DNA from: Candidatus Omnitrophota bacterium
Lineage (GTDB): Bacteria; Omnitrophota; Gorgyraeia; Zapsychrales; JANLHA01
Length of the DNA: 64,000 nt
Assembly: GCA_020632535.1 (NCBI GenBank)
Contig: JACKFJ010000003.1
Coordinates: 230,166-294,165 of the forward strand
Direction of reading: 5' to 3'
Under the pieces are notes generated by a model that was not told the origin of the DNA, did not search any database, and saw only the letters and a list, made by a program, of their open reading frames with translations. The translations under genes were made by a program, and so were the position numbers. Shown here one piece after another: positions 11,192 to 43,898 of the stretch; the stretch's first letter is position 1; each line of letters begins with the position of its first letter.

Positions 11192-12049
11192 ATGCAAAAC
11201 GTCACCCAAAAGGCCGATGTCCTCGTTGAAGCGATTCCTTATATTCACGCTTTCCGTCGAAAAGTCTTTGTCATCAAATACGGCGGCAGCATCCTTGATG
11301 ACCCAAAAATCCGCAAGAATATCTTCGAGGATATCGTTTTCTTAAGTTATGTTGGCATTCGCACGATCATTGTTCACGGCGGCGGGCCGCATATTAGCAA
11401 TCGTATTAAAGAATTGGGCGGCGAAACAATTTTTCATGAAGGCATACGCGTGACAGACGCCAAAACTTTGCAAGTTGTCAGCGAAGAATTGGAGAAATTA
11501 AATAATAAAATCGTTGCTGAAATCAAAGACTTAAAAGGTGATGTCACTGGTCTTAAGGGACAGGAAAATATTATTCACGTAACAAAGAAAAAAGCTTCCC
11601 GCGACCTTGGTTTTGTCGGAACGATCACCAATGTTGATAAAAAAGCACTTGAAAAGCATTTACATGAAGGCTATATCACTGTCGTTTCACCAATGGGTGT
11701 AAGCGTAGACCAACAAACGCATAATGTTAACGCCGACGAAGTCGCCGGCGCGATTGCCGTATCATTAGAAGCGGAGAAAATTGTTCTCCTAACCAATGTC
11801 ACAGGTGTTTTGCGTGATCCCAAAGATCCCGAATCACTGATTTCTACGCTCTCAAAAGCGCAGGTGCATGAACTTATTAAAAGCGGCATCATTCAAGGCG
11901 GCATGATTCCCAAAGTCAACTCGTGCATGGAAGTTTTGGCGGGCGGTGTTAAAAAGGCTCACATTATCGACGCACGATTGCGACACGCCTTGTTACTCGA
12001 AATCTTTACCGATAAAGGTATCGGAACACAAATTTTGGCGGATGTATAA
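11192..12049 (+). CDS. argB: acetylglutamate kinase
   Basis: 285 aa; FVIKYGGS, IVHGGGP, NVNADEVAGAIA. Confidence 0.9.
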   Translation: MQNVTQKADVLVEAIPYIHAFRRKVFVIKYGGSILDDPKIRKNIFEDIVFLSYVGIRTIIVHGGGPHISNRIKELGGETIFHEGIRVTDAKTLQVVSEELEKLNNKIVAEIKDLKGDVTGLKGQENIIHVTKKKASRDLGFVGTITNVDKKALEKHLHEGYITVVSPMGVSVDQQTHNVNADEVAGAIAVSLEAEKIVLLTNVTGVLRDPKDPESLISTLSKAQVHELIKSGIIQGGMIPKVNSCMEVLAGGVKKAHIIDARLRHALLLEIFTDKGIGTQILADV

Positions 12050-27739: not shown

Positions 27740-30232
27740 ATGAAAGCTAAATTTAATAAAGTTTGTATTTTTTTATTTTTCTTTACTGGCGCGGCCTTAG
27801 CAAATTCGCCTACGGTCTATGCCGACCAGCAAGAAGAAGAACTCTTTCTCGTTGCTGAAAAATCCTTCGATGATGGCTTTTACGATGTGGCCATGCGCTA
27901 TGTCGAGCAGTTTCAGCAAAAATATCCCAACTCACAAAAAAGTGTGCAGGCCAAACTGCTTTTAGGGCAGTGTTACTTTTTTAAAAATCAGTATTTAAAA
28001 GCCTTTGAAATCTTTCAGTCCCTTTCGCAATATACAGAATTTCGCGACGCGACGCTATTTTGGCTTGGCGAAACCTACTTTAAGGGTGGTGATTTTAAGC
28101 AAGCAGAAAAAAATTATCAACAGCTCATCAATACATACGCGAATTCAAACTATATCCCCCAAGGGCTTTATTCGCTCGGCTGGACATATTTTGAACAGAC
28201 ACGCTATAAAGACGCGAAAGATATATTTGCCAAACTCATTGCCCGTTTTCCGACTCACAGTTTAAGCGAAGAAGCGGCGTTCAAAATGGGCGAATGCAGC
28301 CATAATGCTGGAGAACACGAAGTGGCCATCAAATACTTTAAAGACTTTGTCACAATTTATCCAAAATCCAATCGCATTACGGAAGCCTATTTTTTTATCG
28401 CTGAATCCTACTACAACGATCAAGACTACCTGACCGCGGTCAATTTTTATGCGCAAGCCGCAAATAAAGCCTATGATCCCAAAATCACCGTTCTTTCTAA
28501 ACTTGGTATGGGATGGAGTTATTTAAAATTACAAAAGTTTGATCTCTCGCTAAAAAGTTTTCAAGAGGCAGATACCGTCGCGCGGGAGAAAAATATTCCT
28601 TCGGAAGATATCCTTCTGGGGTTGGCAACCCTTTACGCTGATGCGGGGGACAATCAAAAAGCAGGGGAGACGTATCAAAAGATGATTACGCAATATCCAC
28701 AAAGTCCCCACTTAGCCGAAGCTTTTCTTGGCAAAGCCAATTGCGATTATGCTCTTACCAAATACTCTGATGCCGTTACAAGCTATCAGCATTTGATTCA
28801 AAGTTTTGCCAAAAATACATCACAAACTGAAGTCGTTGAAAAAGCTTATTACGGCTTAGCATGGACATACTTAAAAAGTGGTAAGACCGATTTGGCCATT
28901 CAAAGCTTTCAAGATATCGTCACAAAATCGACAAGCAAAATCGCCCGCGTCAGCGCTTTAACGCAAATCGCAGATGCTTATCAAGAAATCAATCAGCTTG
29001 ATAAAGCAGTCGAAATTTATGACCAAATTCTTCGCGAATATCCCGATACCATTTATACGGATTACGCACAATTCCGTCAAGGAATCACGCTTTTAAAAGC
29101 CAATAAAATCGAAGCCGCAACGCTTTCATTCCAAAGCCTGCAAGCCAATTTTCCCAAAAGCAAATATCTTGAAGAAGTAAAATATTATCTCGGATTAGCG
29201 TATTTCAAAAAGGAAGAGTGGGAGCAGGCGATCCGTATGGTTAAAGCCTATATCGACGATCCTAGTGAAAACAAAAACTTTGTTGCCGAGGCTAACTATC
29301 TTTTGGGGCTCGCGAATTTCAACCTCAAAAAATATGAATCGGCACTCATGAATTTCCAAAAAATCGTAAAAAACTTTTCGCAGCAAAAGAGCATGGTTCA
29401 AATTGCCGAACTGTATACCGCTAAATCCTTATTCGCCATGAACAAACCAAAGGATGCACTCGAAAAATTTACCGCAATCACAAAACTATATCCTAAAACT
29501 GATAGCGCCGCGGAAGCATTAGTTTGGCTCGGTGACTATTATCTTGATAAAGCAGCGTTTCCTGAGGCGATTGAATACTATAATCAATTCATCAATTCTT
29601 TTCCTCAAAGTGAAAAAATCAATTTGATTATTTATGAACTTGGACAAAGTTATCAAGGGGCAGGACGACTTGATGAAGCTTTGAATGCTTACAAGCGTGT
29701 TACTGAAAATCCTGATAAGGAAATTTTCGCAAAAGCCAAACTCGCCGTAGCTGATATTTTTTCTCGCGATATGGATCGTCAAACCGCAATCACGACGTAT
29801 CAAAATATTGCCAAAAGCGTTCCAGAATTTAAAAAGGATGCCTTGCTGCGGATTGCCGAAATTTATCGTACGGACAAAGAATATCTGCAAGCCATTAATT
29901 CCTATGAAGAAGCTTTGAATTCCAGCAAAACCTTGTCGAAAAGTGACGCCGCGTCCATTCAATTTGAAATCGGTGATACTTATGAGCTTCTTCACAATTC
30001 AACAAAAGCTGTGGAGTCTTATTTAAAAATCTCCTATCTTTATCCTGATGAGAAGGCTTGGGTCATAAAATCTTATTTACGTCTAGCACGTATTTTTGAA
30101 GATGATTCAAAATGGGAAGAAGCCGCGACAATTTACAAAAAAGTTATTGTTTTTAACACCGATGAAGCCAAATATGCCAAAGAACGATTAGATTGGATTG
30201 CCAGCAACTCAAAAGGATCCCATCATGAATGA
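27740..30232 (+). CDS. secreted multi-TPR repeat protein (YbgF/CpoB-like repeats)
   Basis: 830 aa. Signal peptide MKAKFNKVCIFLFFFTGAALANSPTVYA. Repeated A..Y.LG..Y TPR-like units throughout. The stop overlaps the exbB-like start. Confidence 0.8.
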   Translation: MKAKFNKVCIFLFFFTGAALANSPTVYADQQEEELFLVAEKSFDDGFYDVAMRYVEQFQQKYPNSQKSVQAKLLLGQCYFFKNQYLKAFEIFQSLSQYTEFRDATLFWLGETYFKGGDFKQAEKNYQQLINTYANSNYIPQGLYSLGWTYFEQTRYKDAKDIFAKLIARFPTHSLSEEAAFKMGECSHNAGEHEVAIKYFKDFVTIYPKSNRITEAYFFIAESYYNDQDYLTAVNFYAQAANKAYDPKITVLSKLGMGWSYLKLQKFDLSLKSFQEADTVAREKNIPSEDILLGLATLYADAGDNQKAGETYQKMITQYPQSPHLAEAFLGKANCDYALTKYSDAVTSYQHLIQSFAKNTSQTEVVEKAYYGLAWTYLKSGKTDLAIQSFQDIVTKSTSKIARVSALTQIADAYQEINQLDKAVEIYDQILREYPDTIYTDYAQFRQGITLLKANKIEAATLSFQSLQANFPKSKYLEEVKYYLGLAYFKKEEWEQAIRMVKAYIDDPSENKNFVAEANYLLGLANFNLKKYESALMNFQKIVKNFSQQKSMVQIAELYTAKSLFAMNKPKDALEKFTAITKLYPKTDSAAEALVWLGDYYLDKAAFPEAIEYYNQFINSFPQSEKINLIIYELGQSYQGAGRLDEALNAYKRVTENPDKEIFAKAKLAVADIFSRDMDRQTAITTYQNIAKSVPEFKKDALLRIAEIYRTDKEYLQAINSYEEALNSSKTLSKSDAASIQFEIGDTYELLHNSTKAVESYLKISYLYPDEKAWVIKSYLRLARIFEDDSKWEEAATIYKKVIVFNTDEAKYAKERLDWIASNSKGSHHE

Positions 30233-30893
30233 AATAAGCGCACAACAATTACTTTTTGCCGGAGGGCCCATCATGGTCCCAATCATCCTTTGTTCAATCG
30301 CCGCTATAACAATTACGATCAACAAGGGTCTTTACTTTAAACGAATCCATACTGATGTGGCCTTACTAAAATCGAAAACCTTTTCCCTTATTCGTGATAA
30401 TAAAATCAAAGATGCCGTCGCTCTTTGTGAAAATAATCCAGCGCCGGCCGCCCGTATTCTCAAAGCCGGACTTCTCAAATTCGGTTCTTCCCGTGATGAA
30501 ATCAAAGACGCGATTGAATATGCCGCGTCGCTAGAAGTCCCAAATCTCGAAAAAGGCCTGATGCCATTGATCACAATCGCCAACATTACACCTTTATTCG
30601 GCATCGTTGGAACTGTTCTGGGAATGACGATCATTTTTCAAACAATCCAAGCCCAAAATGCTGGCATGCATCCCTTGACACCATCAGATCTCTTCGGAGG
30701 CATTTGGCAAGCACTTTTGACAACACTTGCAGGTCTCATCGTTGCCATTCCAACATTTGTCACATACAATTATTTTTTAAGCCGTGTAGGACGATGTCTG
30801 AATCAAATGGAACAAATCGGGGGAGAGCTAATCAATTTGCTAACACGTTTAAACGAGTCAAACAGCAGCCAAATCGCAGACCCGCTCGAATAA
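30225..30893 (+). CDS. MotA/TolQ/ExbB-family proton-channel protein
   Basis: ITPLFGIVGTVLGMTIIFQTI and LLTTLAGLIVAIP blocks typical of ExbB/TolQ. ATG at 30225 preceded by AAAAGGA; 8-nt overlap with the TPR gene. Confidence 0.85.
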   Translation: MNEISAQQLLFAGGPIMVPIILCSIAAITITINKGLYFKRIHTDVALLKSKTFSLIRDNKIKDAVALCENNPAPAARILKAGLLKFGSSRDEIKDAIEYAASLEVPNLEKGLMPLITIANITPLFGIVGTVLGMTIIFQTIQAQNAGMHPLTPSDLFGGIWQALLTTLAGLIVAIPTFVTYNYFLSRVGRCLNQMEQIGGELINLLTRLNESNSSQIADPLE

Positions 30894-30894
30894 C

Positions 30895-31299
30895 ATGAAA
30901 TTCAAATGTCAACTCAAAGTCGCAACCGGCCTTTTGCCGATCACATTCGCGCCAATCCTTAATTTGATATTACTGCTAATCATGTTTCTCATGCTCACAC
31001 CGTTTATTAGTTATCCGACGTCGATTCATACGTACCTCCCAAGAACCATCACAAGCGATATCGTTCCTGAACACACAACAACAATTACAATCACCAGCGA
31101 AGATATTATTTATTTTGAAAATGGAATTTTGACAGATAAGGAACTCCGCAAGATTCTTCAAACGCCGTCGTTAAAAAAGCAGCCTATTCTCATTAAAGCC
31201 GACGGACGTTCGTCATTGGCACGCGTCATTGACGTCTGGAATGTCTGCCGTGAGCTCGGCCTAGAACGAGTAAACATCGCGACCACAATGAGCAAATAA
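30895..31299 (+). CDS. ExbD/TolR-family protein (atypical: Asn at the conserved membrane Asp position)
   Basis: 134 aa. TM segment FAPILNLILLLIMFLML aligns with E. coli ExbD TPFIDVMLVLLIIFMV. The periplasmic part PILIKADGRSSLARVIDVWNVCRELGLERVNI fits the ExbD fold pattern. Confidence 0.8.
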   Translation: MKFKCQLKVATGLLPITFAPILNLILLLIMFLMLTPFISYPTSIHTYLPRTITSDIVPEHTTTITITSEDIIYFENGILTDKELRKILQTPSLKKQPILIKADGRSSLARVIDVWNVCRELGLERVNIATTMSK

Positions 31300-31307
31300 C
31301 AACCACC

Positions 31308-31742
31308 ATGCAGAATTACACTCAACAGAATTTCTTTAACCCTTTGAGCATTGGGCTTATCACATCACTTGTATTACATTTTTTATTTTTTCATTCGATT
31401 ACTTTTAAATTCAACCCGCTCATAAGACCAACTCATACCGAGATCACTTTTTTGGGCGCGATTCTCGATCCCTTTGAAGTCGAAGAAATCAAATCCAAGC
31501 GATCACTATCCAAAACGATCTCTGCCGATTTAGCAAGAATACCCGAACCATCCGGTCGTGCCATTACAGCACCGGCCAAACCCAGCATGACTAGTGGCAT
31601 AAACACGAATCGTTCTAAAGTTGTATTCCGTGAACGCGTTCAACCGCCAGCCAAGCCACAAGAAAAAAACTCTAAAAATGAAAATTTGATCGAAAAAGAT
31701 TTTTCCATAAAACCATATAAAAAATTAAGGTTATATCAATGA
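31308..31742 (+). CDS. TonB/TolA-like N-terminal membrane anchor protein lacking a recognisable C-terminal domain
   Basis: 144 aa. Single N-terminal TM segment LITSLVLHFLFF with the S-x3-H spacing of the TonB/TolA signal anchor. Pro/Lys-rich middle (QPPAKPQEK). No TonB C-terminal motif seen. Confidence 0.45.
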   Translation: MQNYTQQNFFNPLSIGLITSLVLHFLFFHSITFKFNPLIRPTHTEITFLGAILDPFEVEEIKSKRSLSKTISADLARIPEPSGRAITAPAKPSMTSGINTNRSKVVFRERVQPPAKPQEKNSKNENLIEKDFSIKPYKKLRLYQ

Positions 31743-32471: not shown

Positions 32472-34016
32472 ATGTTTTTCTCGAAATCATCGACTGAAAA
32501 AAGCCAGCTAGGCATCTACTGGGGCAAAGACGCTTTTTGTTTTGTTGAAAGCAAAAAAGGTCAGCCTGATAAAATTGCCTATGTTAATTTTGATACACCA
32601 ATCGCAGGAGATCAGGGACAAAAAATCCCCGAAGGGCTGCGCTTAACTGCTTTAATTCAGCAAGTTATCCGTGAAAAGAAATTCACCTGCAAAAAAATAA
32701 ATCTTTCCCTCTCCGTTAAGGATGTCATTTATCGTTCATTCGTCATTCCCTTCATGCAGCCGGCAGAAGTCAAAAGCGTTGTTGACTTTGAAGCGACAAA
32801 ATACATTCCGATCAAACTGGAAGATTTAGCTTACACATTTCATGCAATCCCTTTTAGCGAAGGAGATCAGAAAAACTTACGTATTTTGTTTGTCGCGACA
32901 CGCAAAAATAGCGTTGAACGATACACCAACATTCTACAACAATCTGGATTAGAAACTGAATTCATTGAACCCGCATCGGTCAGCTTAATTCGCATTTTAC
33001 AAAAACAAGGACATATCCCCAAACAACAGGCTACTGGTATCATCGAAATCGAAAATGAAGGCGGTCGAATCACCGTAACAGATAAAGATGTCATTCAATT
33101 CGTCAGAGAGTTTCAATCGTCAATTGAAGGTACCGGACTTCCGGCAGAAAACGCAAAATTCTTCAATGACATTCATGTCGCTTTTAATTTTTATCAAAGA
33201 CAAAATCCGCAAGGAAAATTAGATCGCATTCTCACGTTATCAACAAATGATCTTAGCCCACTTGCAGCTGGATTAAGTCAGGAGTTTAAAGTCCCTGCAA
33301 CATCTTTAACCGTCGCAAAAATTCTTAAAACGGAGCAAATCAGCGACTCAGGGATGTTGAGTGCCGCCGGAGCGGCGATCCGCGAAAAGGCATCGACCAG
33401 TAAAAATTTTGATTTGACGACCAAAATCAAAACTAATAAAACTGGACTTGAAAGCAGCGGTGTTTTTGCAAATTGGAATTTAAAACTATTAGGTATTTGT
33501 GTTGGAGCTTCGATCGCTTTAATTTATTTAACGTCGTTGTGGTCGACAAGCTCAATTGCAGATGCCAAAAAACGTTCTGCAAATTTATCAAAAAAACTCG
33601 GTATTTATGAATCGTCTCCAAAAGAAAAAATTACCGAACTTAAGGACGGTGTTGTTAGTAAGCTCAATCAATATCAAGATGTTCGCACAAAAAGTAATAT
33701 CACATACTATTTAAAGAAAATCCCAAAGATGTTGCCACCTGGCGCATGGCTTAACAATTTTAATATTGAATATTACGAAGGGGCCGAGACCCAGGATGGT
33801 ATTCTTAGACGTGTTTCAAACGTAGCGCTTTCGATGGATGGCTATATTTATCTACCCACGTCTAATGAGCAACTTCGCCAAATCAATACTATGGTCGCAA
33901 AGATGAAAAATGACAAAGAACTATCAAAACTTTTTAAAGAAATCGTTTTAGCAAATGTTAAACAGGAAAATTTCAATAATTATTCTGTAACCAATTTCAG
34001 GATCGGCTGCAAATAG
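32472..34016 (+). CDS. PilM-PilN fusion (GspL/MshI-like) inner-membrane assembly protein
   Basis: 514 aa. N-terminal ~320 aa with a PilM/actin-like pattern (LGIYWGKDAFCFVE..., FEATKYIPI). Single TM segment LLGICVGASIALIYLTSLW. ~150-aa periplasmic domain. Confidence 0.6.
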   Translation: MFFSKSSTEKSQLGIYWGKDAFCFVESKKGQPDKIAYVNFDTPIAGDQGQKIPEGLRLTALIQQVIREKKFTCKKINLSLSVKDVIYRSFVIPFMQPAEVKSVVDFEATKYIPIKLEDLAYTFHAIPFSEGDQKNLRILFVATRKNSVERYTNILQQSGLETEFIEPASVSLIRILQKQGHIPKQQATGIIEIENEGGRITVTDKDVIQFVREFQSSIEGTGLPAENAKFFNDIHVAFNFYQRQNPQGKLDRILTLSTNDLSPLAAGLSQEFKVPATSLTVAKILKTEQISDSGMLSAAGAAIREKASTSKNFDLTTKIKTNKTGLESSGVFANWNLKLLGICVGASIALIYLTSLWSTSSIADAKKRSANLSKKLGIYESSPKEKITELKDGVVSKLNQYQDVRTKSNITYYLKKIPKMLPPGAWLNNFNIEYYEGAETQDGILRRVSNVALSMDGYIYLPTSNEQLRQINTMVAKMKNDKELSKLFKEIVLANVKQENFNNYSVTNFRIGCK

Positions 34017-34019: not shown

Positions 34020-34667
34020 ATGCCTCCGCAACCACCCAAAAAAATCACGAGTCTGCATCAAATTGATATTTCCAAATTGGATGTCAAGGATCTGCAGAAT
34101 ATTGATTTTCAAAAAATCCTGAAAGATGCGCGTCAACGTCCAGACACGGCTATTGCTTTTGCTGTTCCAATACTCGCTCTTTTCATATGCTTCAATATAT
34201 TTACAAAATCACAAAATGAGAGAAGAATTGTTACAACTAAAATCAAGGAAATGGAAGCCAAAGTCAAATTGGTCGATGAATACAATACCGCTCAGGAAGA
34301 ATTTCAAACATTTTTGGATACCATGCCAGCAAAAATTACGGAAGATGAATTTATTACTAAAATTACCGATTTTGCTGTGAAGAACCACGTGCAGATCGAA
34401 TCATTCTCTCCAGCTCAAAACAAGAGCGATCCCATTTACGATTTAAAATTAATTAACTTGACTGCAAACGCCCAAGATTTCAATGATATGGGACATTTTA
34501 TTCAAGATATTGAAAATTCCGGTTTATCGATTCGAATCAATAGCTGGAATGGCAATATGGGGCCGCAAGCACAAGGCGGAGCACGCCGCGCAATCGATCC
34601 CAATAATCCAAACGGACTCGTCATTAATTTTCGTCTCGAAGTCGCCTCAGTGACATTTAAACAATGA
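34020..34667 (+). CDS. PilO/GspM/MshJ-like bitopic assembly protein
   Basis: 215 aa; cytoplasmic N-terminus, TM segment AIAFAVPILALFICFNIFT, coiled-coil segment, periplasmic ferredoxin-like-sized domain; position between PilMN and the secretin. Confidence 0.5.
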   Translation: MPPQPPKKITSLHQIDISKLDVKDLQNIDFQKILKDARQRPDTAIAFAVPILALFICFNIFTKSQNERRIVTTKIKEMEAKVKLVDEYNTAQEEFQTFLDTMPAKITEDEFITKITDFAVKNHVQIESFSPAQNKSDPIYDLKLINLTANAQDFNDMGHFIQDIENSGLSIRINSWNGNMGPQAQGGARRAIDPNNPNGLVINFRLEVASVTFKQ

Positions 34668-35221
34668 AAAAATTATTCATAACAACCGCCTTTACCTTTT
34701 TGCTTCTAAACCCGCTTTTGGTTTATGCTCAAAATATTTCGCAATCACCCATTACACAATTAAAATCAATCATTCAAACACCGCCACCGGACCCATTACA
34801 AACTACCCTTGAGAAAATCAACCAAAATAAAAATCAAAAAAATTCAAGAACTGACGACGATTCTGAAGAAGAAACACAAATAGAGATATTTATCAATCCC
34901 TTTGTTCCACAGATTCCAAAAGATATTAAGCCAGTCGCGGTGAACCCGCAAAACGACAACCAAAATTTGCAAACTCAACCAGTTCCCGTTATCCCTACGC
35001 CACAATTTATTGTTTCCGGATTAATTTGGAACAGTAAAAAACCAGCCGCGATTATGAACGGTCAAGTCGTAGCGATTGGTGATCAGGTAAGCAACTGGGC
35101 TATTTCTGAAATCACAAAAGATGGTGTTCGCGTCTCATATGAAGACCGCAGTTTATGGATTAAACCCATTGTAGATCCCATGAGCCAGCCGCAACAGGCA
35201 ACTCCGGGAAGACGATTTTGA
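34664..35221 (+). CDS. PilP/GspB(T2SSB)/MshK-like periplasmic secretin-associated protein
   Basis: 185 aa. Signal peptide, Pro/Gln/Asn-rich linker, C-terminal block FIVSGLIWNSKKPAAIMNGQVVAIGDQVSNWAISEITKDGVRVSYEDRSLWI typical of PilP/GspB-type domains. Confidence 0.55.
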   Translation: MKKLFITTAFTFLLLNPLLVYAQNISQSPITQLKSIIQTPPPDPLQTTLEKINQNKNQKNSRTDDDSEEETQIEIFINPFVPQIPKDIKPVAVNPQNDNQNLQTQPVPVIPTPQFIVSGLIWNSKKPAAIMNGQVVAIGDQVSNWAISEITKDGVRVSYEDRSLWIKPIVDPMSQPQQATPGRRF

Positions 35222-35250
35222 ACAGTACAAGACAGGACAAAGGAGTCATT

Positions 35251-36789
35251 ATGTTGAAAAAAAATCTTATCATATTATTTCTAGGATGCACAATACTTTA
35301 CAGTACGAACATAGCGATCGCTGCTGATATTGATATCGACACTTCAAGCTCATTTCTTTATCCTGGATTCTCGAAAAAAATATCCATGGATTTTCAAGAC
35401 GCGTCTTTAGTCGATGTCTTAAAAATATTTTCACAGCAGACAAGTATTAATCTCATATCGTCAGAAGAGATCGCTGGAAAGCGTGTTACCGTATATCTTG
35501 ACAATGTTCCAGTCGAACAAGCCCTTGAACAAGTTTTACGGGCCAACAGCTTGACATATGAATTACAACCCGATAGTAATATCTACATTGTCAAACCCCT
35601 CGCAAAACCCGAAATTGAACTCTTAACCCGTGTTTATCTACTCAAACATGCCAGCGTCAGTACGGCACGCATCGGTAAAACCTTAAAAATTGTTTATACC
35701 GTTGATCAAGGTACTACACAGGAAGTAACCGAAAGCACCAAAGGCGGATCTTCTGGTGGTTCATCTGGAGCAGGCGGAGAAGGAAGTCCTGGTATAATGA
35801 GCGCACTTAAGGGAGTTATTACGGCCAAAGGCACTATCGTTGAAGATAGCCGGACAAACAGTCTGACGATTACCGATATCGCGAGCAATTTTAAAAACAT
35901 TGAAACCGCCTTAGCAAAACTCGACACACCCGTTCCGCAAGTTTTAATTGAAGTCGAAATGCTTGAAGTTTCAAAAGAGGTGGGAGATAAAATCGGTGTC
36001 AAATTTGGCGAAACACCACTAACGTTTAATGGCGGAACGCGCGCTGTACTTTACCCCTGGAATCAGAATAAAATTCTACAAAAAGGTTTTGAATTTGAAG
36101 AGGAGTGGACAGCAGGGACGCTCAGTGCCACGGGGATGACCGCTATCCTACAATTTCTTCAAACACAAAGCGATACCAAAAATTTAGCTAGACCACGAAT
36201 TTTAACACTTAACAATCAGCCAGCACAAATTAAAATTGCAACACAGGAAGCTATTGGTTTAACAGAAAGTACGACATCATCACAAAATTTAGCAACAGCA
36301 ACGAGTTCCGCGGAGCGTGTTGAAACCGGCGTTTTCTTAACCGTCACACCACAGGTCGACATCGTTAATAATGAGATTACCATGGCCGTCGTTCCGAAAG
36401 TCATCACGACCACACCCAGCTCAATTACGACGGGTGGTGTTACCCTCAAAGATCCCGAAGAAAGAGGTTCATTGTCAATTTTGCGCGTAGCCAGCGGTGA
36501 TACAGTTGCACTTGGCGGTTTACTACGTGAAGATCACACAACCGTCGTTACTAAAATACCTTTTCTTGGCGATATTCCCTTTATTGGATCGGCATTCCGT
36601 CATAAAACCGAAAACCTTGAGAATCGTGAATTAATCATCTTTTTAACACCGCATATTCTTGAAGATGGATTACAAAAGAATGCCCAAACACCAAAGCGTC
36701 CGATTTTTCGTGAGCAGACTGAACCTTCCCAAAACCGCTTAGAAACTGTCGAACGCGAATTGTCAAACACTCAAAGAAAAAAATTATAA
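35251..36789 (+). CDS. secretin (PilQ/GspD/MshL family)
   Basis: N0/STN-like block MDFQDASLVDVLKIFSQQTSINL. C-terminal secretin signature GDTVALGGLLRED..TKIPFLGDIPFIGSAFRHK....RELIIFLTPHIL. ATG at 35251 preceded by AAGGAG (the track start at 35218 is TTG). Gly/Ser-rich insert at 35737-35793. Confidence 0.9.
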   Translation: MLKKNLIILFLGCTILYSTNIAIAADIDIDTSSSFLYPGFSKKISMDFQDASLVDVLKIFSQQTSINLISSEEIAGKRVTVYLDNVPVEQALEQVLRANSLTYELQPDSNIYIVKPLAKPEIELLTRVYLLKHASVSTARIGKTLKIVYTVDQGTTQEVTESTKGGSSGGSSGAGGEGSPGIMSALKGVITAKGTIVEDSRTNSLTITDIASNFKNIETALAKLDTPVPQVLIEVEMLEVSKEVGDKIGVKFGETPLTFNGGTRAVLYPWNQNKILQKGFEFEEEWTAGTLSATGMTAILQFLQTQSDTKNLARPRILTLNNQPAQIKIATQEAIGLTESTTSSQNLATATSSAERVETGVFLTVTPQVDIVNNEITMAVVPKVITTTPSSITTGGVTLKDPEERGSLSILRVASGDTVALGGLLREDHTTVVTKIPFLGDIPFIGSAFRHKTENLENRELIIFLTPHILEDGLQKNAQTPKRPIFREQTEPSQNRLETVERELSNTQRKKL

Positions 36790-36790: not shown

Positions 36791-38503
36791 ATGGCGCATT
36801 TAAAGTTAGGTGAAATTCTGCTTCAGCAAGGATTGCTCAATGAAGAGCAGCTGCGCGAAGCCATACAAGTCCAAAAAAGAGATTCTGGACGTATCGGAGA
36901 AATTCTCATTAAATTGGGTTTTCTCACGGAAGAAGATATTGTTGCGGCATTGGGAAGTCAATTGAATATTCCTCATGCTAGTAGCCAAAACAATCTGCTC
37001 AAACCCCGCGTCGATCAAAATTTAGATAAAATTCTTCCATACGACTTTGCGAAAACAAATCTTGCCTTACCACTAAGCAAGGAAGACAACAAACTCACAT
37101 GCGCGGTTGATGATCCGCTTGACTTGCTAATGCTTGATAATTTGCGAATGGTCACAGGGTGCGAAGTGTCGTTAGTCCTTGCTACCCGTTCCGATCTCAT
37201 GGCTGCCATTCAAGATTTTTATACTTTAGCGCGATCCAATGCAGGGACACCTATGGCGCTGCCATCGGACAATATCGAAGGAGAAACACCTGTTCCTGCA
37301 GATCCTAAAGTTGGCCTCAAAGATAATAATTTGGATGACATGATTGAAAAAGCTGAAGAACCTCCTGTTATTAAACTTGTTGATTTGATTATCCGCCAAG
37401 CGATTGAACAGCGCGGCAGTGATATTCACATCGAATCCTATAAGGATAAAATTAATTTACGATACCGTATTGACGGTATCCTCTATCAAATTCCACCACC
37501 AGCCCGACATCTTTTATTACCAATTGTTTCTCGTCTTAAAATTCTTGCCAAACTCGATATTGCTGAAAAACGTTTGCCACAAGACGGATCCATTGCTTTT
37601 AAAATAGGTGAGAGGACTGTTGATTTGCGTATTTCAACTGTTCCGACAGTATGGGGCGAAAAAGTTGTTATGCGTATTTTAGATAAATCCGCGGTACCTC
37701 TACGTCTAGAAAATTTAGGTTTTAATGAAGTTCAGTTGGAACGCATCCGCAAAGCTCTCAAAAGACCATATGGCCTATTTTTCGTTACCGGTCCAACGGG
37801 AAGTGGAAAATCAACAACACTTTATTCCGCACTCAGTGAAGTCATGGATCCACGCAAAAATATCGTTACCGCTGAAGACCCGGTAGAATTCAAACTTGAC
37901 GGGATAAATCAGGTCGCAGTACGTCCTGACATCGGCTTAACATTTGCTTCTGTTCTGCGTGCTTTTTTACGTCAAGATCCTGATATCATCATGGTTGGTG
38001 AGGTTCGTGATCTTGAAACCGCACAAATCTGCGTTCGTGCGGCTTTAACAGGACACTTTGTTTTAAGTACCCTTCATACAAATGACGCATCCGCCGCCAT
38101 TACGCGTCTCTTGGATATCGGGATTGAATCATACCTTTTAACACCGTCGCTTTCGATGGTATTAGCACAGCGCTTGGCGCGCAGACTTTGCTCAAAATGC
38201 AAAGAGCCAATGGAACCAAATCCTGATCTTTTGGGTGGGCTTAAATTTAACAGCGACCTTATTTACAAAGCCGCGGGCTGTGATGAATGCAATCATACTG
38301 GCTACCGCGGCCGACTTGTTATTACGGAGGCCATGGTCATTGATGATAATTTGCGCGAACTTATGACCAAAAAGGCCGGCTATTCTGAAATTCTTGATGC
38401 CGCTCGCAAGGGTGGCATGGATACATTATTTGAAGACGGAATTAAAAAAGTCGAAGCAGGATTAACCAGTCTTGATGAAATTTTAAGTGTAACCGCACTT
38501 TAA
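36791..38503 (+). CDS. GspE/PilB/MshE-family secretion ATPase with MshEN-type N-terminal domain
   Basis: 570 aa; Walker A GPTGSGKSTT, Asp/His boxes, tetracysteine CSKC...CDEC; N-terminal tandem 24-residue MshEN motifs (residues 5-28 and 34-57). Confidence 0.92.
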   Translation: MAHLKLGEILLQQGLLNEEQLREAIQVQKRDSGRIGEILIKLGFLTEEDIVAALGSQLNIPHASSQNNLLKPRVDQNLDKILPYDFAKTNLALPLSKEDNKLTCAVDDPLDLLMLDNLRMVTGCEVSLVLATRSDLMAAIQDFYTLARSNAGTPMALPSDNIEGETPVPADPKVGLKDNNLDDMIEKAEEPPVIKLVDLIIRQAIEQRGSDIHIESYKDKINLRYRIDGILYQIPPPARHLLLPIVSRLKILAKLDIAEKRLPQDGSIAFKIGERTVDLRISTVPTVWGEKVVMRILDKSAVPLRLENLGFNEVQLERIRKALKRPYGLFFVTGPTGSGKSTTLYSALSEVMDPRKNIVTAEDPVEFKLDGINQVAVRPDIGLTFASVLRAFLRQDPDIIMVGEVRDLETAQICVRAALTGHFVLSTLHTNDASAAITRLLDIGIESYLLTPSLSMVLAQRLARRLCSKCKEPMEPNPDLLGGLKFNSDLIYKAAGCDECNHTGYRGRLVITEAMVIDDNLRELMTKKAGYSEILDAARKGGMDTLFEDGIKKVEAGLTSLDEILSVTAL

Positions 38504-38529: not shown

Positions 38530-39777
38530 GTGCCACGTTTTCATTATGTTGCCAAAGATTCAAACGGAAAAAATATAACTGAAGAAACTGAAGCTTTTGA
38601 TAAAGCAAGCCTCATTCAATCACTTCAACAAAAAGGATACTTCATTCTCTCTGTTGAAGAGCAAGCCGCTACCTCAACACACATCGCAACAACAGAAGAA
38701 AGTACCAAAAAATTTACCCACTCGGGTATCAAGTTACTGGACATGCTCAACTTTGCCAATCAATTGGCAACAATGCTTGATTCCGGAATTACCATTTTAC
38801 GCGCACTGGAAGTTATTGTTGATCAGGTCGAAAGTAAAAACTTTTATGCGATTTTGCAGAAAGTTAATGCAGATGTTGAGCAAGGTAGTTCACTGAGCGA
38901 AGCCTTATCACGTTTTCCTAAAGTTTTTGACCAGTTGTGGGTCAGTCTTATCGAAGTCGGGGAAGCTTCCGGAACAATGCCAATGGTTCTTAAAAAACTG
39001 GCTTTTTATCTCGAACAAAAAGCCGCCTTTCGCGCAACCGTCACGTCGGCTGTTATGTATCCAGCTGTTCTTTTTGTCGTCTGTCTCGGCGCCATCGCCT
39101 TTTTCGCATTATTTATCGGCCCGCGTTTTGAAAGTATTTTTAACACAATGAACGTTGAATTGCCTTTGATTACCAAAGTCCTGCTTTCAACATTCCGTTT
39201 CATTAAAGAAAAATTTTTAATGCTAGTCATGAGTGTTGTCATTGGTATTTTCCTATTCCGCAAATACAGTAAAACGCCTATGGGCCGCGCGCATGTCGAA
39301 CAATTCCTATTTGGTTTGCCCGTTATCGGCAATATTGCCAAACTCATTGTTATCGAAAGATTTACTTCACAAATGTCCATTTTAGTCGACAGCGGGGTTC
39401 CTATTCTCTATGCTTTAGATATTACACAAAGGCTTGTAGATAATTCCATTTGCGCGGGCGTTATCAATGATATTAAAGAAAGTGTCCGACAGGGCGAATT
39501 GCTCGTCGCACCCATGCAACGCAGCAAATTTTTCCCTTCGATGTGTATTCAAATGATTTCCGTCGGCGAAGAAACCGGTGAATTGAGTAAAATGCTTACG
39601 CACGTTGCGACATATTATCAACAAACTGTCGAAACTTTTATGAAACGCCTTGGAACGCTCATTGAACCATTCATGCTTGTATTTATGGGGGGCGTTATTG
39701 GCGTCATTGTTCTTGCCATGTTCCTTCCCATGTTTAATATTGCGCAATTAGGTGGGGCAGGAGGGGCAAGACATTAA
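38530..39777 (+). CDS. GspF/PilC/MshG-family platform protein
   Basis: 415 aa; N-terminus PRFHYVAKDSNGK, duplicated T2SSF-type blocks (LSEALSRFPKVFD..., GEETGELSKML); GTG start preceded by AAGGAG. Confidence 0.9.
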   Translation: MPRFHYVAKDSNGKNITEETEAFDKASLIQSLQQKGYFILSVEEQAATSTHIATTEESTKKFTHSGIKLLDMLNFANQLATMLDSGITILRALEVIVDQVESKNFYAILQKVNADVEQGSSLSEALSRFPKVFDQLWVSLIEVGEASGTMPMVLKKLAFYLEQKAAFRATVTSAVMYPAVLFVVCLGAIAFFALFIGPRFESIFNTMNVELPLITKVLLSTFRFIKEKFLMLVMSVVIGIFLFRKYSKTPMGRAHVEQFLFGLPVIGNIAKLIVIERFTSQMSILVDSGVPILYALDITQRLVDNSICAGVINDIKESVRQGELLVAPMQRSKFFPSMCIQMISVGEETGELSKMLTHVATYYQQTVETFMKRLGTLIEPFMLVFMGGVIGVIVLAMFLPMFNIAQLGGAGGARH

Positions 39778-39804: not shown

Positions 39805-41571
39805 ATGAATTCACAACCTTTTAACCGCATACACAACTACTCTACGGCTTTTTTTCTCATCATTGTCATTGTGCTTTGCCATGGTCTAAGTGTTAAAGCA
39901 CAATTTATGGTCGACGATTTTGATTATTTGCCCCAAGGCCAAAAACAAGCAATCTATCAAAATCTACCCGATCTTTTCCTCAAGTCAGAAGTCCATCATT
40001 ACAATCCTTTGAATATCGCACTCAATATTTCCTTGTTCAAAACGTACAAATCCGCCTCAAGCCTTTACGCAATCAATCTCTTGCTATTTTACGGAAATAC
40101 TCTTTTACTTTTTATTCTTGTCACACGTTTAACGCAAAATTTAGAAATAGGCGCGCTGACTGCAATACTATTCGCTGTTCACCCTGTAAATGCGGAAATG
40201 TTAAGCCATATAACATTAAATACTGTAATGGTCTGTGCCGCATTTCTGCAGACTAGTATGATTTTATTCTGGCGCCACATTACCTCTCCCCAAAAGACAG
40301 TAAAAAGTATTTTACTAAGCCTCATCCTTTTCCTATTTGCTCTATTGTTTCTTGAAACAGCCTTACTTTTCCCTATCTATCTAAGCCTATTGTGCCTTGT
40401 AAACAAAAATGACCGCTGGCAAAATTTGCGTCAGACAATACCATTCTGGATCACTGCATTTTTATATTTTGGCCTTTGGTGTTTGATGGCTGGTCCAGCA
40501 GGGCAATGGAACGATAAAATTCAGCATTTACAATTTTCTTTTGAAAGTTATACCGCAACATTAAGTTTTTTACTTCAGTGGTATTTTCAAAATTTAATTA
40601 TCCCAAATAATTTTGTGTTAATAAAGAATTCTCCGGCACTATCTCATTCAATACTCTTTTGGAATAGCGCATTGCTATTAGGGATTTTTTTGACAATTTG
40701 CCTATTATGGTTCTGGCGAAAGAATATAAAGAAATTTGCGTTGGCATGGTTTATCTCAGGTTTTACTTTTATGCTCCCAGCAAGCATCGTCCACGCATAC
40801 AGCATGGGCATTGTCATTGAACCTCATTGGTTTTATTTTTCATCGATGGGATTCTTTATGCTTTTTGCGTTATCTCTCAATGATCTTAAACCACGGATTC
40901 AAACAATACTTTATCGCTCACTTATATGTGTCCTCGTAATTTTCTGGGGATTAACATCTTTTCGACACCATGTCATTGCACGTACCGAAATCAGTTATCT
41001 TGAATATTGGTTAAAAAACAGTCCGAACAATAGACTCCCAGCCTCAAAACTCGGCCTTTTATACGGTTCAAATAATGGCCTTACCATTCCAGCTGAATTA
41101 ATTTCCGATATGGACAATCAAACAGATTACTTTATAAAAGCGAATCACTATAGTGAATCCATTGATCTTTTAGAAAAACTTGTAAAGCAAAATCCAATGA
41201 ATCCTAAGCACAATATATGGGATGATAGATTATCCGCTTTATACTTAAAAGTAGGCGAGACTGTCACTGCTGAAAATCGATTTAAACTGCGTTTTACCAA
41301 AAAACTGCCTTTAAAAGAGTACCTTATGCTGGCTCAATTGTTAGAACAGCTTGAAATCCGTGAAAAAGCTCTTACTGTCCTTGATCAGGGCCTGATCTAC
41401 TATCCACAACAGGTGGATTTAGTCTATCTTAAAGCCGTAATTCTCGCTAACCAAAACCGCTTTTCTGAAGCAGAATCGCTATTAAAAGCACAAAATCACG
41501 TAGAAAAAGACGAACGCTACTTAAAATTATTAAAGGATATTGAAACAATAAAATTAAAGACACAAAAGTAA
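39805..41571 (+). CDS. TMTC-like (DUF1736-type) GT-C fold glycosyltransferase with C-terminal TPR domain
   Basis: 588 aa. About 11 predicted TM segments. First-loop FMVDDFDYL acidic motif. LFAVHPVNAEMLSHI resembles the TMTC/DUF1736 HPxxxE block. TPR-like C-terminus. Confidence 0.65.
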   Translation: MNSQPFNRIHNYSTAFFLIIVIVLCHGLSVKAQFMVDDFDYLPQGQKQAIYQNLPDLFLKSEVHHYNPLNIALNISLFKTYKSASSLYAINLLLFYGNTLLLFILVTRLTQNLEIGALTAILFAVHPVNAEMLSHITLNTVMVCAAFLQTSMILFWRHITSPQKTVKSILLSLILFLFALLFLETALLFPIYLSLLCLVNKNDRWQNLRQTIPFWITAFLYFGLWCLMAGPAGQWNDKIQHLQFSFESYTATLSFLLQWYFQNLIIPNNFVLIKNSPALSHSILFWNSALLLGIFLTICLLWFWRKNIKKFALAWFISGFTFMLPASIVHAYSMGIVIEPHWFYFSSMGFFMLFALSLNDLKPRIQTILYRSLICVLVIFWGLTSFRHHVIARTEISYLEYWLKNSPNNRLPASKLGLLYGSNNGLTIPAELISDMDNQTDYFIKANHYSESIDLLEKLVKQNPMNPKHNIWDDRLSALYLKVGETVTAENRFKLRFTKKLPLKEYLMLAQLLEQLEIREKALTVLDQGLIYYPQQVDLVYLKAVILANQNRFSEAESLLKAQNHVEKDERYLKLLKDIETIKLKTQK

Positions 41572-41605: not shown

Positions 41606-41634
41606 TTGACATTCCCTATTTGACATGTTATACC
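41606..41634 (+). promoter_or_regulatory. putative promoter of the pilin leader transcript
   Basis: TTGACA (41606-41611), 17-nt spacer containing a TG at 41626-41627 (extended -10 type), TATACC (41629-41634). Confidence 0.35.
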
Positions 41635-41654
41635 TTACCTAGAAAATTGGTATT

Positions 41655-41738
41655 GCTCGAAAAGGGTAAACTATCCGTAAGGGTAGGGCACAAAACTATA
41701 GGGTCCCGGCAAATTGTGGGGGATAGCCAGTTACCAGC
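41655..41738 (+). promoter_or_regulatory. candidate c-di-GMP-I (GEMM-I)-like riboswitch aptamer in the pilin leader
   Basis: Blocks occur in the same order as in the V. cholerae Vc2 aptamer as I recall it. AAAAGGGTAAA, then a 6-bp hairpin CTATCC-GTAA-GGGTAG (GNRA loop, 41671-41686). Next GGCACAAAAC (compare GACGCAAAGC). Next helix CTAT...ATAG (41696-41699 / 41723-41726). Finally CCAGTTACC (compare GGGGTTACC). GGTAA (41665-41669) can pair with TTACC (41731-41735). The core differs at several normally conserved positions. Confidence 0.4.
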
Positions 41739-41757
41739 AAAAAAAATTGCATAATGT

Positions 41758-41803
41758 GCCTATTCTAGGGTAGAATGAAACAAAATTAGAATAGGCATTT
41801 TTA
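41758..41803 (+). terminator. intrinsic-terminator-like hairpin (possible riboswitch expression platform)
   Basis: Perfect 10-bp stem GCCTATTCTA (41758-41767) / TAGAATAGGC (41787-41796) followed by ATTTTTA; lies between the candidate aptamer and the pilin start codon. Confidence 0.5.
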
Positions 41804-41918
41804 TTGAAACCTGACAACCCCTAAAGGAGGGATGACGAGACAAGAGAGAAGTGACACAGAATTTAACCAAATTAATAAAAATGAAAACAATGAAGTTTAA
41901 TATAAAGGGAGTATTTAA

Positions 41919-42341
41919 ATGAATATCAAATCTAAGAAAAGTGGTTTTACGTTGCTCGAAATTATCATCGTTGTTATTATCGTTGGTGTTTTAGCCAGCT
42001 TGGCTTTACCAAAATTCTTCAGCACGGTTGAATTCTCACGCGCTCAAGAAGGTTTATCCGCCCTCGCAACTATCCGCGGCGGTTTGGAACGTTTTTATGT
42101 TTCAAAAGGTAATACCTATAGCGGGGCAACAACTGCAAATATTGATACGGGTGACCCTTTAGCTGGTCAACCTAACGCGCATTTTACTTGCGCTGTTACT
42201 GCGGCTTCTGCGACAGGTTATACAATCACCGCGACTCGTAATAGTGTTGATGGTGGTACGGCTGGTAACACCATTGTTATTCAACAAACAACTGCTACTA
42301 TTACACGTTCTGGTACAACAGCATTTGCTGGTATTAACTAA
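41919..42341 (+). CDS. major prepilin/pseudopilin (type IV pilin-like, GspG/MshA-like)
   Basis: 140 aa. Leader MNIKSKKSG then FTLLEIIIVVIIVGVLASLALPKF (G/FTLxE cleavage motif with Glu+5). Thr/Ala/Gly-rich C-terminal half. First and best-RBS pilin gene. Confidence 0.85.
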   Translation: MNIKSKKSGFTLLEIIIVVIIVGVLASLALPKFFSTVEFSRAQEGLSALATIRGGLERFYVSKGNTYSGATTANIDTGDPLAGQPNAHFTCAVTAASATGYTITATRNSVDGGTAGNTIVIQQTTATITRSGTTAFAGIN

Positions 42342-42449: not shown

Positions 42450-42860
42450 ATGAAGAAAATACACGTGCAAGGCGGTTTTACAATCATGGAAATTTTAATT
42501 ACAGTCCTCATTGTTGGTATTATCGCAGCATTTGCAATTCCAAACTACGGGAAATCTGTCGATCAAACTCATATCCAAGATGCAGTCATGCAGCTTTCGG
42601 CTATTCGCACCGCAAATCAAGTCTATTACGCGCGTAGATCCGAATATTGGCCAAGCACGTCGACTCATCCGGTTAATGAAATCAATGCAAATTTAAGTTT
42701 AAGCATAATTGAAAATGGTAAAACTTACAATTGTGATGGCAACGGAACAACTTTTACATGTACAGCAAAGCGTTCTGGCGTTCAAATTGCTGGGGTAACA
42801 GAAGCTCCGTTAAGTACGACAAACCCGGGGTGTCCTAGTGCAGGGACCGCGTGTAATTAA
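42450..42860 (+). CDS. prepilin-type protein (second pilin)
   Basis: 136 aa; MKKIHVQGG then FTIMEILITVLIVGIIAAFAIPNY; four Cys in the C-terminal part. Confidence 0.8.
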   Translation: MKKIHVQGGFTIMEILITVLIVGIIAAFAIPNYGKSVDQTHIQDAVMQLSAIRTANQVYYARRSEYWPSTSTHPVNEINANLSLSIIENGKTYNCDGNGTTFTCTAKRSGVQIAGVTEAPLSTTNPGCPSAGTACN

Positions 42861-42882: not shown

Positions 42883-43254
42883 ATGAAAATTCTTGCTCAA
42901 AACTGTAAAAAAAATAACCGCACAGGTTTTACAATTACCGAAGTTATCATTTCCACACTGATTTTTTCGCTAGCCATGGCTGGCGTTTTTTCCAGCATTT
43001 CCCAATTACGGCAACCTGCGGTTGAATCAAGCCAAGAAGTCACAGCCGCATTTCTTGGCAAAAAGATATTGGATGATTTGCGTGGTGACGTCAGTCAAGA
43101 CACATGGAATTCCGGAAACTTGGTCGCTGGCACAACGTATGGACCATATACGCAGACAATTGGAGGCAAACAATATTTTTATTCTTATGACGTTATCGCT
43201 GATCCCGACGGAACACGAGCCCGACAAGTTACACTCAATGTAACATGGAACTAA
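42883..43254 (+). CDS. minor prepilin-type protein (GspI/MshC-like size)
   Basis: 123 aa; leader ending NNRTG then FTITEVIISTLIFSLAMAGVF. Confidence 0.7.
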   Translation: MKILAQNCKKNNRTGFTITEVIISTLIFSLAMAGVFSSISQLRQPAVESSQEVTAAFLGKKILDDLRGDVSQDTWNSGNLVAGTTYGPYTQTIGGKQYFYSYDVIADPDGTRARQVTLNVTWN

Positions 43255-43898
43255 TAATGAATATCCACTTTAAAAAAGGGATGACGCTCACCGAACTCAT
43301 CATCGCCACAGTACTCGTTGGAATTGTGACGTTAGGACTGGTTGCTGCAGAACAAGCGGTACGAATGTCCCGTCAATCGTCCATGCGTGACAGTCAAATT
43401 TCTGGACAAATGCAAGCGACAATGCTCGTTTTAAACAGAAGTGCCAGCCTGACAGTAGGCGATTCTGCAAATACCGGAATTTATCAATACCTTTCTAGCA
43501 ATGATATGACAACATGCTTTCGACAAGGTGCCGGTGACGTGAATGTTTATACCGACGATGTGTGGACATGTTGGTGGGTTGACATATCATCGGGCGGAAA
43601 CCCCGTATTAACAAGCTGTGAAAATCTCAACAGCCCTGTGACCACTTGCAACGGACAGGCAAGTTTGCGAGAATGGGTCACACTGGTTTTTGAAGGATCT
43701 TATACGCAATTCTGCTCTGTTGTTGATACTGGTGGTTTTACAATTACCCCTCCCAATGCCATTATAACGGGAACAAAAGTTGCATACATTCAACTCACCC
43801 TTCAGTCTCGTCATAATAAAGACAAAGCAGCGCACCCCATTGAAAATCCCGATTATACTCTTACCGCCAATATTAGTCCGTCTGGACTAAGTCGCTAA
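43245..43898 (+). CDS. minor prepilin-type protein (GspJ/PilW/MshD-like size)
   Basis: 217 aa; ...HFKKG then MTLTELIIATVLVGIVTLGLV; alternative ATG at 43257. Confidence 0.7.
   Translation: MELIMNIHFKKGMTLTELIIATVLVGIVTLGLVAAEQAVRMSRQSSMRDSQISGQMQATMLVLNRSASLTVGDSANTGIYQYLSSNDMTTCFRQGAGDVNVYTDDVWTCWWVDISSGGNPVLTSCENLNSPVTTCNGQASLREWVTLVFEGSYTQFCSVVDTGGFTITPPNAIITGTKVAYIQLTLQSRHNKDKAAHPIENPDYTLTANISPSGLSR

Follow-up and report, generated by a model that had tools for sequence, protein, structure and literature searches.

It has been reported that several assembly ATPases of type IV pili (T4P) carry an N-terminal MshEN (GSPII) domain that binds the second messenger cyclic di-GMP (c-di-GMP). In Vibrio cholerae, higher c-di-GMP favours extension driven by the ATPase MshE; in Thermus thermophilus, tight binding of c-di-GMP is required for twitching and adhesion; and in Myxococcus xanthus, c-di-GMP binding stabilises PilB. 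The ligand site was described as a 53-residue domain consisting of two 24-residue copies of the consensus RLGxx(L/V/I)(L/V/I)xxG(L/V/I)(L/V/I)xxxxLxxxLxxQ, separated by a 5-residue spacer, and more than 10,000 MshEN proteins, many of them in pil/gsp operons, were counted (Wang et al. 2016, PMC5013675). That PilB N-domains bind c-di-GMP is taken as established in a 2024 review. The MshEN domain itself is a well-known kind, for which NCBI annotation uses a dedicated hidden Markov model (HMM), and the control of pilin genes by a c-di-GMP riboswitch is already known in Clostridioides difficile. Here we describe a type IV filament gene cluster on a 64-kb stretch of DNA (the window) from a Candidatus Omnitrophota bacterium. 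Omnitrophota are an uncultivated phylum with very small cells, suspected of being predatory or host-dependent, and to our knowledge nothing is known experimentally on their signalling. The assembly ATPase of this cluster has a genuine MshEN domain of ~150 residues that probably binds c-di-GMP; the binding, its affinity and the signs of regulation discussed below, by the domain and by a c-di-GMP riboswitch in front of the pilin genes, are predictions from sequence and structural modelling.

The features of the ATPase gene were as follows.

36791..38503, + strand: assembly ATPase of the PilB/GspE/MshE class, 570 residues (Pfam T2SSE, NCBIfam PilB model)
36803..36874, + strand: MshEN motif I, KLGEILLQQGLLNEEQLREAIQVQ, residues 5-28 (24 residues)
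36875..36889, + strand: spacer KRDSG, residues 29-33 (5 residues), completing the 53-residue unit
36890..36961, + strand: MshEN motif II, RIGEILIKLGFLTEEDIVAALGSQ, residues 34-57 (24 residues)
37004..37234, + strand: C-terminal alpha/beta subdomain of MshEN, residues 72-148 (PF05157), containing the invariant Asp108 (37112-37114)
37349..38485, + strand: ATPase core (N2 and C-terminal domain), residues 187-565 (Pfam T2SSE, catalytic motifs)

Translation of 36803-36961 (+) gave KLGEILLQQGLLNEEQLREAIQVQ-KRDSG-RIGEILIKLGFLTEEDIVAALGSQ, i.e. residues 5-57 of the 570-residue open reading frame (ORF) 36791-38503 (+). An earlier note on this DNA, made from the letters alone, had claimed both MshEN motifs with the canonical spacer at this place. 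The claim was confirmed by the translation and by the NCBIfam model NF053729 ('cyclic di-GMP-binding domain, MshE-related'), which aligned over all its positions, 1-53, with residues 5-57 and scored 61 bits (cut-off 38; E = 7e-17). The consensus given in that note agrees verbatim with Wang et al. (2016, PMC5013675), and motif I departs from it, as had been said, only by R1K and L21I. For motif II the note had given conservative changes of L to I and L to F; the kinds of change are right, but L to I occurs twice rather than once (L2I and L17I, beside (L/V/I)11F). All departures in both motifs are conservative or have precedent, and both motifs fit the relaxed search pattern of Wang et al. (2016, PMC5013675), in which every one of these departures is allowed; no further occurrence of this pattern was found in the six frames of the 64-kb window. 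The two-motif match is thus real and far beyond chance. An HMM search with Pfam MshEN (PF05157), which the note had proposed as a check, gave a match of 69 bits to residues 72-148, that is, to the C-terminal subdomain only. Because PF05157 covers only these residues, its match is uninformative on the c-di-GMP motif; it was dropped as a motif test, and NF053729 was used as the relevant profile for the ligand site.

Judged by the described binders, the Arg-to-Lys change at position 1 of motif I is no defect, since Lys is found there in proven high-affinity binders. In domain GSPII-B of T. thermophilus PilF, Lys167 at this position stacks on guanine and K167R weakens binding; the Lys-bearing Ct-PilB (Chloracidobacterium thermophilum) and Dg-PilB2 (Deinococcus geothermalis) bind c-di-GMP at 53 nM and 13.5 nM, respectively, and the start of the published consensus has been widened to (R/K/L)LG (PMC11731258). 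The window protein resembles these PilB-type proteins (PilF GSPII-B, 8PDK/8PKZ; Chloracidobacterium PilB; Deinococcus PilB2) in having Lys at this position, which in them goes with dissociation constants (KD) of ~6-53 nM, and because of this Lys its affinity for c-di-GMP is expected to be tens to hundreds of nM. It differs from T. thermophilus PilF, which has three tandem GSPII domains and in which motif II of GSPII-B opens with Leu and is shorter by one residue; also, Arg268 of GSPII-B pre-organises an Asp, whereas Leu110 stands at this place in the window protein. The Leu-to-Ile changes are benign by the same kind of comparison: in engineered PilF GSPII-A, Leu-to-Ile at motif positions 17 and 21 had only a 2.4-fold cost (PMC12002112), and M. 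xanthus PilB, a proven c-di-GMP binder, likewise has RIG in motif II. PilB of M. xanthus (model 3JC8) and of Geobacter (5TSG) are single-MshEN proteins like the window ATPase and gave the top sequence scores among the single-domain PDB entries, at ~40-45 % identity; the Geobacter spacer, unlike that of the window protein, has 7 residues.

Conservation was calculated from 55 ATPase orthologues with 65-91 % identity, and across this set the ligand-contact residues appear to be under purifying selection. The stacking residue, Gly and Gln (motif positions 1, 3 and 24) are present in both motifs, as K5/G7/Q28 and R34/G36/Q57. G7, R34, G36, L54, Q57 and D108 are invariant (55/55), Q28 is kept in 54/55, and residue 5 is Lys or Arg in all 54 orthologues compared there, with Lys in the majority (42 K, 12 R). 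The 5-residue spacer is present in 52/55. The mean entropy of the consensus-fixed positions was 0.55 and 0.68 bits in the two motifs; at the x positions it was higher, 1.44 and 1.03 bits. For the two motif Gln side chains, hydrogen bonding of the ligand is the sole structural role described. The window ATPase is free of the substitutions by which PilF GSPII-A is disabled (Q to H/R, R to S, G to A), and likewise of those in XpsE of Xanthomonas, the N-domain of which has the same fold.

In the database, the nearest proteins form more than 100 clusters at 65-91 % identity and come from metagenome-assembled genomes (MAGs) of Candidatus Omnitrophota. A near-identical orthologue, given as '100 % identical' in the database comparison, lies at 10001-11713 of locus L001, a contig labelled Omnitrophota from a sibling genome with ~88 % nucleotide identity to the window, and differs by two residues, I81L and N179S. 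Of the codon changes between the two genes, 135 are synonymous and 2 non-synonymous, and 132 of the 138 nucleotide differences are at third codon positions; within the 53-residue motif the changes are 9 synonymous and 0 non-synonymous. In this comparison the ATPase is the most constrained gene of the filament cluster.

A model of residues 1-150 was calculated with AlphaFold2 from an alignment of 28 orthologue fragments (mean predicted local distance difference test score, pLDDT, 86.1). It shows helices at 6-12, 18-30, 35-42 and 47-58, followed by a three-stranded alpha/beta subdomain, and this four-helix N-subdomain plus three-stranded C-subdomain is the published MshEN architecture. In a Foldseek search against PDB, the top match was the complex of MshE with c-di-GMP, 5HTL (template modelling score, TM, 0.81/0.87; root-mean-square deviation 2.1 A over 141 columns), followed by c-di-GMP-bound PilF GSPII-B (TM 0.77-0.84); the non-binders GSPII-A (TM 0.65) and XpsE (TM 0.59-0.69) scored lower. 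Asp108 aligns with the D-P-R of PilF GSPII-C. The superposition on the MshEN complex suggested in the earlier note came out in its favour. Its broader claim, that c-di-GMP directly controls pilus or pseudopilus extension, stands as far as the computational tests it proposed; binding, stimulation as in V. cholerae and the choice between pilus and pseudopilus stay predictions. The window protein shares with V. cholerae MshEN (5HTL) the two 24-residue motifs, the 5-residue spacer, the location at the very N-terminus of an ATPase for T4P extension, the fold of two subdomains, and both Gln, both Gly and the C-subdomain Asp. It is unlike it in sequence (28 % identity), in the Lys at position 1 of motif I, in having Ile for three of the six triangle leucines and Leu at MshE A110, and in its setting, the phylum being different and the cluster not an msh operon.

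By this likeness, the four-helix N-subdomain formed by residues 5-57 would bind one c-di-GMP. Lys5 and Arg34 would provide the stacking on the two guanines, bases and phosphates would be in contact with the main-chain amides of Leu6/Gly7 and Ile35/Gly36, the bases would be sandwiched by two hydrophobic triangles (L6/I50/L54 and L21/I25/I35), Gln28 and Gln57 would form hydrogen bonds to the ribose-phosphate, and Asp108 of the C-subdomain may add one contact. Occupancy of the site would tune filament assembly; most likely it would promote extension or make the motor more stable, as is the case for V. cholerae MshE, T. thermophilus PilF and M. xanthus PilB.

Several points weigh against binding or against this mode of action. 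A perfect consensus is insufficient, as PilF GSPII-A with the consensus restored stayed a non-binder for structural reasons: helix alpha1 has an additional turn, L4-T5-I6-G7-D8-K9, which is stabilised by an N-cap and directly precedes R10, and a hydrophobic cluster (I6, L11, I59, F63, L113, L116) lies between the subdomains (PMC12002112). L58, L110 and L113 of the window protein match F63, L113 and L116 of GSPII-A in being hydrophobic, and binders carry A, R or S at the equivalent of L110. The 5HTL-like orientation of the subdomains in the model is weak evidence, AlphaFold being known to miss such packing (PMC12002112). No GGDEF, EAL, HD-GYP or PilZ gene was found in the 64-kb window when all six frames were searched with regular expressions and nearly every ORF with 120 residues or more was compared with Pfam; GGDEF and PilZ genes have been reported in Omnitrophota genomes. 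Finally, the outcome of binding varies by organism: the ATPase activity of C. perfringens PilB2 is unaffected, and M. xanthus mutants are inconsistent with V. cholerae (2024 review). Because the effects differ among model organisms, the sign and mode of action in the window ATPase are ones that we infer.

The first of these points are also the case for a different function: as in PilF GSPII-A, packing of the subdomains would occlude the site, and the domain would mainly serve protein interaction, linking the ATPase with the PilM/PilC platform or with a PilZ-type adaptor like that of the Xanthomonas PilB-PilZ pair. Besides the failure of consensus restoration and the GSPII-A-like L58, L110 and L113, the complex of the Xanthomonas PilB N-domain with PilZ (7LKO) is among the structural matches (TM 0.72); however, that domain is only 17-18 % identical and has no motif. 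The N-cap block cannot form in the window protein, because merely 4 residues precede motif I (only 4 in 49/55 orthologues), and the model shows no helix at residues 1-5. The subdomain-interface hydrophobics do resemble those of GSPII-A (9G1W), and both it and the N-domain of XpsE (2D27/2D28) have the same fold, but these two non-binders have lost exactly the Gln, Arg or Gly contacts that the window protein keeps, and GSPII-A adds the N-cap turn. The natural GSPII-A has H33 and R62 for Gln, plus S39 and A41 (PMC12002112), and XpsE has lost eight consensus residues. In the 55 orthologues, by contrast, Q28, Q57, K/R5, R34, G7 and G36, which are known solely as ligand contacts, are (nearly) invariant while the neighbouring x positions vary freely. 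An occluded site is therefore considered unlikely, and c-di-GMP binding by the domain is preferred with good confidence; it is not rated higher, because of the GSPII-A-like interface at L58/L110/L113 and the packing that AlphaFold misses.

A second reading of the same messenger, which the earlier note does not mention, was found in front of the pilin genes. By an Rfam scan of the window, a riboswitch was located between the gene of a tetratricopeptide repeat (TPR) membrane protein and prepilin gene 1 (ATG at 41919), and the pilin leader has the order promoter-like element, aptamer, hairpin with U-run, ribosome binding site and ATG.

41620..41647, + strand: putative promoter-like element (consensus scan, 10/12 matches), overlapping the conserved TGnTATAC(C)TTA
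41655..41738, + strand: c-di-GMP-I (GEMM-I) aptamer, 84 nt (Rfam RF01051, 56.1 bits versus gathering 35, full length 1-87)
41756..41805, + strand: terminator-type expression platform, a 13-bp hairpin followed by a U-run
41919..42341, + strand: prepilin gene 1, 140 residues, leader MNIKSKKSG/FTLLE (N_methyl; TIGR02532 above cut-off), the first gene past the riboswitch

The aptamer scored above gathering in 9/10 orthologous loci, the ATPases of which have 66-100 % identity, with 53-62 bits in the eight further ones; in every case a prepilin gene follows shortly 3' of it:

RF01051 aptamers: L001 14865-14946; L006 13110-13192; L083 14838-14944; L084 13107-13187
RF01051 aptamers, continued: L085 9115-9199; L086 12846-12939; L087 9070-9148; L089 9064-9173

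In the Rfam structure, 97.4 % of the cells are paired, versus 33-48 % with slid partners; six pairs show compensatory changes, and none of 500 shuffles reached the observed values. A consensus structure from RNAalifold that paired the columns of G20 and C92 (numbering of the V. cholerae aptamer Vc2) was rejected in favour of the Rfam structure, since both nucleotides contact the ligand. An equivalent of the terminator hairpin with U-run is present in 8 loci (dG -15.5 to -19.7 kcal/mol). The element TGnTATAC(C)TTA (41628-41647 in the window) lies 17-25 nt upstream of the aptamer at six loci (the window, L001, L083, L006, L087 and L085); because it looks like an extended -10 promoter, it suggests that the pilin genes are transcribed apart from the ATPase operon.

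All of 10 aptamers compared have G at model position 11, A at 38 and the 3' CC; the mapping of these Rfam columns to G20, A47 and C92 of Vc2 is ours. The window aptamer is like Vc2 in its full-length RF01051 match, in the equivalents of these three nucleotides and in a GNRA-capped P1b; it differs in the closing pair of P1 (U-A for C-G, a compensatory change), in the distal P2, the length of which varies, and in the genes downstream, which are pilins. In Vc2, G20 recognises one of the guanines, and an A in its place is the mark of sensors of cyclic GMP-AMP (cGAMP) (PMC6140456). All aptamers have G at the discriminating column, so that a cGAMP-type (GEMM-Ib) aptamer was ruled out. The same column bears on the proposal that the physiological ligand of the MshEN domain is another cyclic dinucleotide, e.g. 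3',3'-cGAMP. Signalling by cGAMP with GEMM-Ib riboswitches does exist in some bacteria, and VcMshEN is reported to bind cGAMP weakly (PMC5013675). Nevertheless, G is found at the G20 position, and not A, in all 10 cluster-associated aptamers, wild-type G20 aptamers discriminate against cGAMP, and the backbone-amide recognition of guanine O6/N7 by MshEN disfavours adenine (PMC5013675); such a ligand is very improbable. With a conserved RNA sensor of c-di-GMP in the lineage, it can be concluded that the organism very likely makes c-di-GMP and that this cluster is among its targets.

Through this riboswitch and its intrinsic terminator, c-di-GMP would control transcription into the pilin genes. 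When truncated transcripts were folded, GUGCC (41756-41760), the first five bases of the 5' arm of the terminator, paired with GGCAC of the aptamer core (5-6 bp) in 4/8 loci, and the full-length minimum free energy structure keeps the terminator. A candidate GGCAC:GUGCC antiterminator would exclude the ligand-bound core, and these folds weakly suggest an OFF switch. The known case of C. difficile, Cdi-2-4, is alike in that a c-di-GMP riboswitch with terminator lies directly upstream of the T4P major pilin gene pilA1. It is unlike in class (II, with another fold), in host (a monoderm Firmicute) and in being a demonstrated ON switch, whereas the window has a class I aptamer beside an ATPase with MshEN. 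We know of no riboswitch in the PilB clusters of M. xanthus or Geobacter.

For comparison, a background scan with generic Walker-A-type patterns returned 80 loci, most of them from other phyla, which were kept as a background set. A model built from the cluster aptamers had matches in just three of ~73 PilB-type loci from other phyla. GEMM-I-like aptamers lie within a few kb of PilB-type genes at L050 300-379 (Planctomicrobium), L046 15070-15149 (Actinomycetota MAG) and L013 12854-12942 (Desulfovirgula MAG). A GEMM-I-like aptamer was also seen in a more distant Omnitrophota cluster (L049 6165-6253). The combination of pilus genes with a GEMM-I riboswitch recurs sporadically beyond the focal family.

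As for the machine, the ATPase matched Pfam T2SSE over residues 187-565 (458 bits, E = 2.5e-137) and has Walker A GPTGSGKS at 334, the Asp box EDPVE at 362, the His box TGHFVLSTLH at 420 and the tetracysteine zinc motif CSKC at 467 and CDEC at 497; all of these motifs are invariant among the orthologues. The NCBIfam model PilB (TIGR02538) aligned end to end with residues 5-568 (611.2 bits, cut-off 675.65), and GspE (TIGR02533) aligned from residue 81 on (595.7 bits, cut-off 630.25). Since both scores are under the equivalog cut-offs, the ATPase was filed at superfamily level only. The cluster runs on the + strand in the order UvrA, large TPR protein, ExbB, ExbD, two small ORFs, PilM-like protein, PilO, 185-residue ORF, secretin, ATPase, PilC/GspF, polytopic TPR membrane protein and four prepilins, which have canonical G/F(M)T leaders, and the order of the filament genes is kept in eight other Omnitrophota loci. 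The remaining members are listed below.

32472-34016, + strand: PilM-like protein, 514 residues (Pfam PilM_2)
34020-34667, + strand: PilO (Pfam PilO)
34664-35221, + strand: unknown ORF of 185 residues, between PilO and secretin
35218-36789, + strand: secretin (Pfam Secretin/Secretin_N/STN), directly upstream of the ATPase, best NCBIfam score PilQ
38530..39777, + strand: PilC/GspF platform protein (Pfam T2SSF, E = 1.4e-54; NCBIfam GspF 352 and PilC 339 bits, both under cut-off)
42450-42860, 42883-43254 and 43245-43898, + strand: three further prepilin-type genes, leaders G/FTIME, G/FTITE and G/MTLTE (N_methyl)

Judged from these domains, the cluster encodes a type IV filament machine, with a PilM-like protein, PilO, secretin, ATPase, PilC/GspF and four prepilins. 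Its assignment to type IVa pili or to a type II secretion system (T2SS) by NCBIfam equivalogs was dropped, as no cluster component reached the cut-off for either. If the machine is T2SS-like, c-di-GMP would gate secretion, as proposed for P. aeruginosa PA14_29490; such a reading concerns the output and not the binding. The ATPase scores nearly as high with GspE as with PilB (596 versus 611 bits), GspF is the best-scoring model for the platform protein and GspG for prepilins 1 and 2, the 514-residue PilM-like protein is long enough for a GspL-like PilM-PilN fusion, a preprint describes conserved 'T2SS-like' loci in Omnitrophota, and neither PilT nor the prepilin peptidase PilD was found in the 64-kb window. 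On the other hand, the GspE, GspF and GspG scores are all under the curated cut-offs, the PilB model fits the ATPase over its whole length and takes in the N-terminal motif region, which the GspE model leaves uncovered, the secretin is best as PilQ, PilM_2 and PilO domains are present, and the loci of the preprint differ by RcpC, a rotamase and adjoining giant genes. A secretion machine is regarded as possible, though less likely, and the cluster is called only a type IV filament machine, which may make a pilus or a pseudopilus.

Other observations were made on the genes in and around the cluster. In the PilM-like protein (32472-34016), PilM_2 covers only residues ~50-215, and a PilN-like or GspL-like part could have been fused to it as the long C-terminal extension. 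ExbB, ExbD and an unassigned 144-residue ORF (30198-31742, +) lie directly upstream of the filament genes, after UvrA and an 830-residue YbgF/BamD-like TPR gene. The arrangement is the same in L001, L083, L084, L085 and L089, and since this synteny is conserved across the family, it suggests that a Tol/Ton-type proton-motive module is tied to the machine. The polytopic membrane protein between PilC and the riboswitch (588 residues with C-terminal TPRs, 39805-41571, +) occurs only in the window, L001 and L083; L086 has a 1028-residue spermine-synthase-like gene at its place. Its paralogue at 48289-50127 (+) has a PMT_2 (GT39/ArnT-like) domain and may be a glycosyltransferase. Between the last prepilin and a minus-strand TPR gene, a gene of 596 residues without Pfam match is present in L001 (17134-18924, -) and L083 (17723-19513, -); because it is absent from the window (~43900), it is an indel between sibling genomes. 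A tRNA gene (47417-47489, +; Rfam 66 bits) is located downstream of the cluster, and a tRNA is similarly placed after the pilins in L003, L005, L006, L084, L085, L087 and L088. Elsewhere the window has housekeeping genes, for the biosynthesis of arginine, lysine, histidine and folate and for RecA and AlaS.

No paper on riboswitches or on c-di-GMP control of pili in Omnitrophota was found in a literature search. One conserved cluster of this phylum has two independent sensors for the same messenger, a protein domain on the motor and an RNA on the pilin mRNA, so that the machine is probably under the control of one signal at two levels and c-di-GMP very likely decides when the filament gets built. 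The two sensors make up a testable circuit and no new principle; a 150-residue domain and an 84-nt RNA are small objects that can be synthesised, and c-di-GMP signalling in the phylum could be verified with them without cultivation. We only tentatively propose a lineage-wide circuit of two tiers, in which a class I riboswitch would gate pilin transcription and a Lys-type MshEN receptor of predicted high affinity would sit on the motor. If the riboswitch is an OFF switch, c-di-GMP would cut the pilin supply while engaging the motor. Such an incoherent arrangement could give a pulse of piliation, or could re-purpose the motor, e.g. for attachment or secretion, in these ultra-small and possibly host-dependent bacteria.

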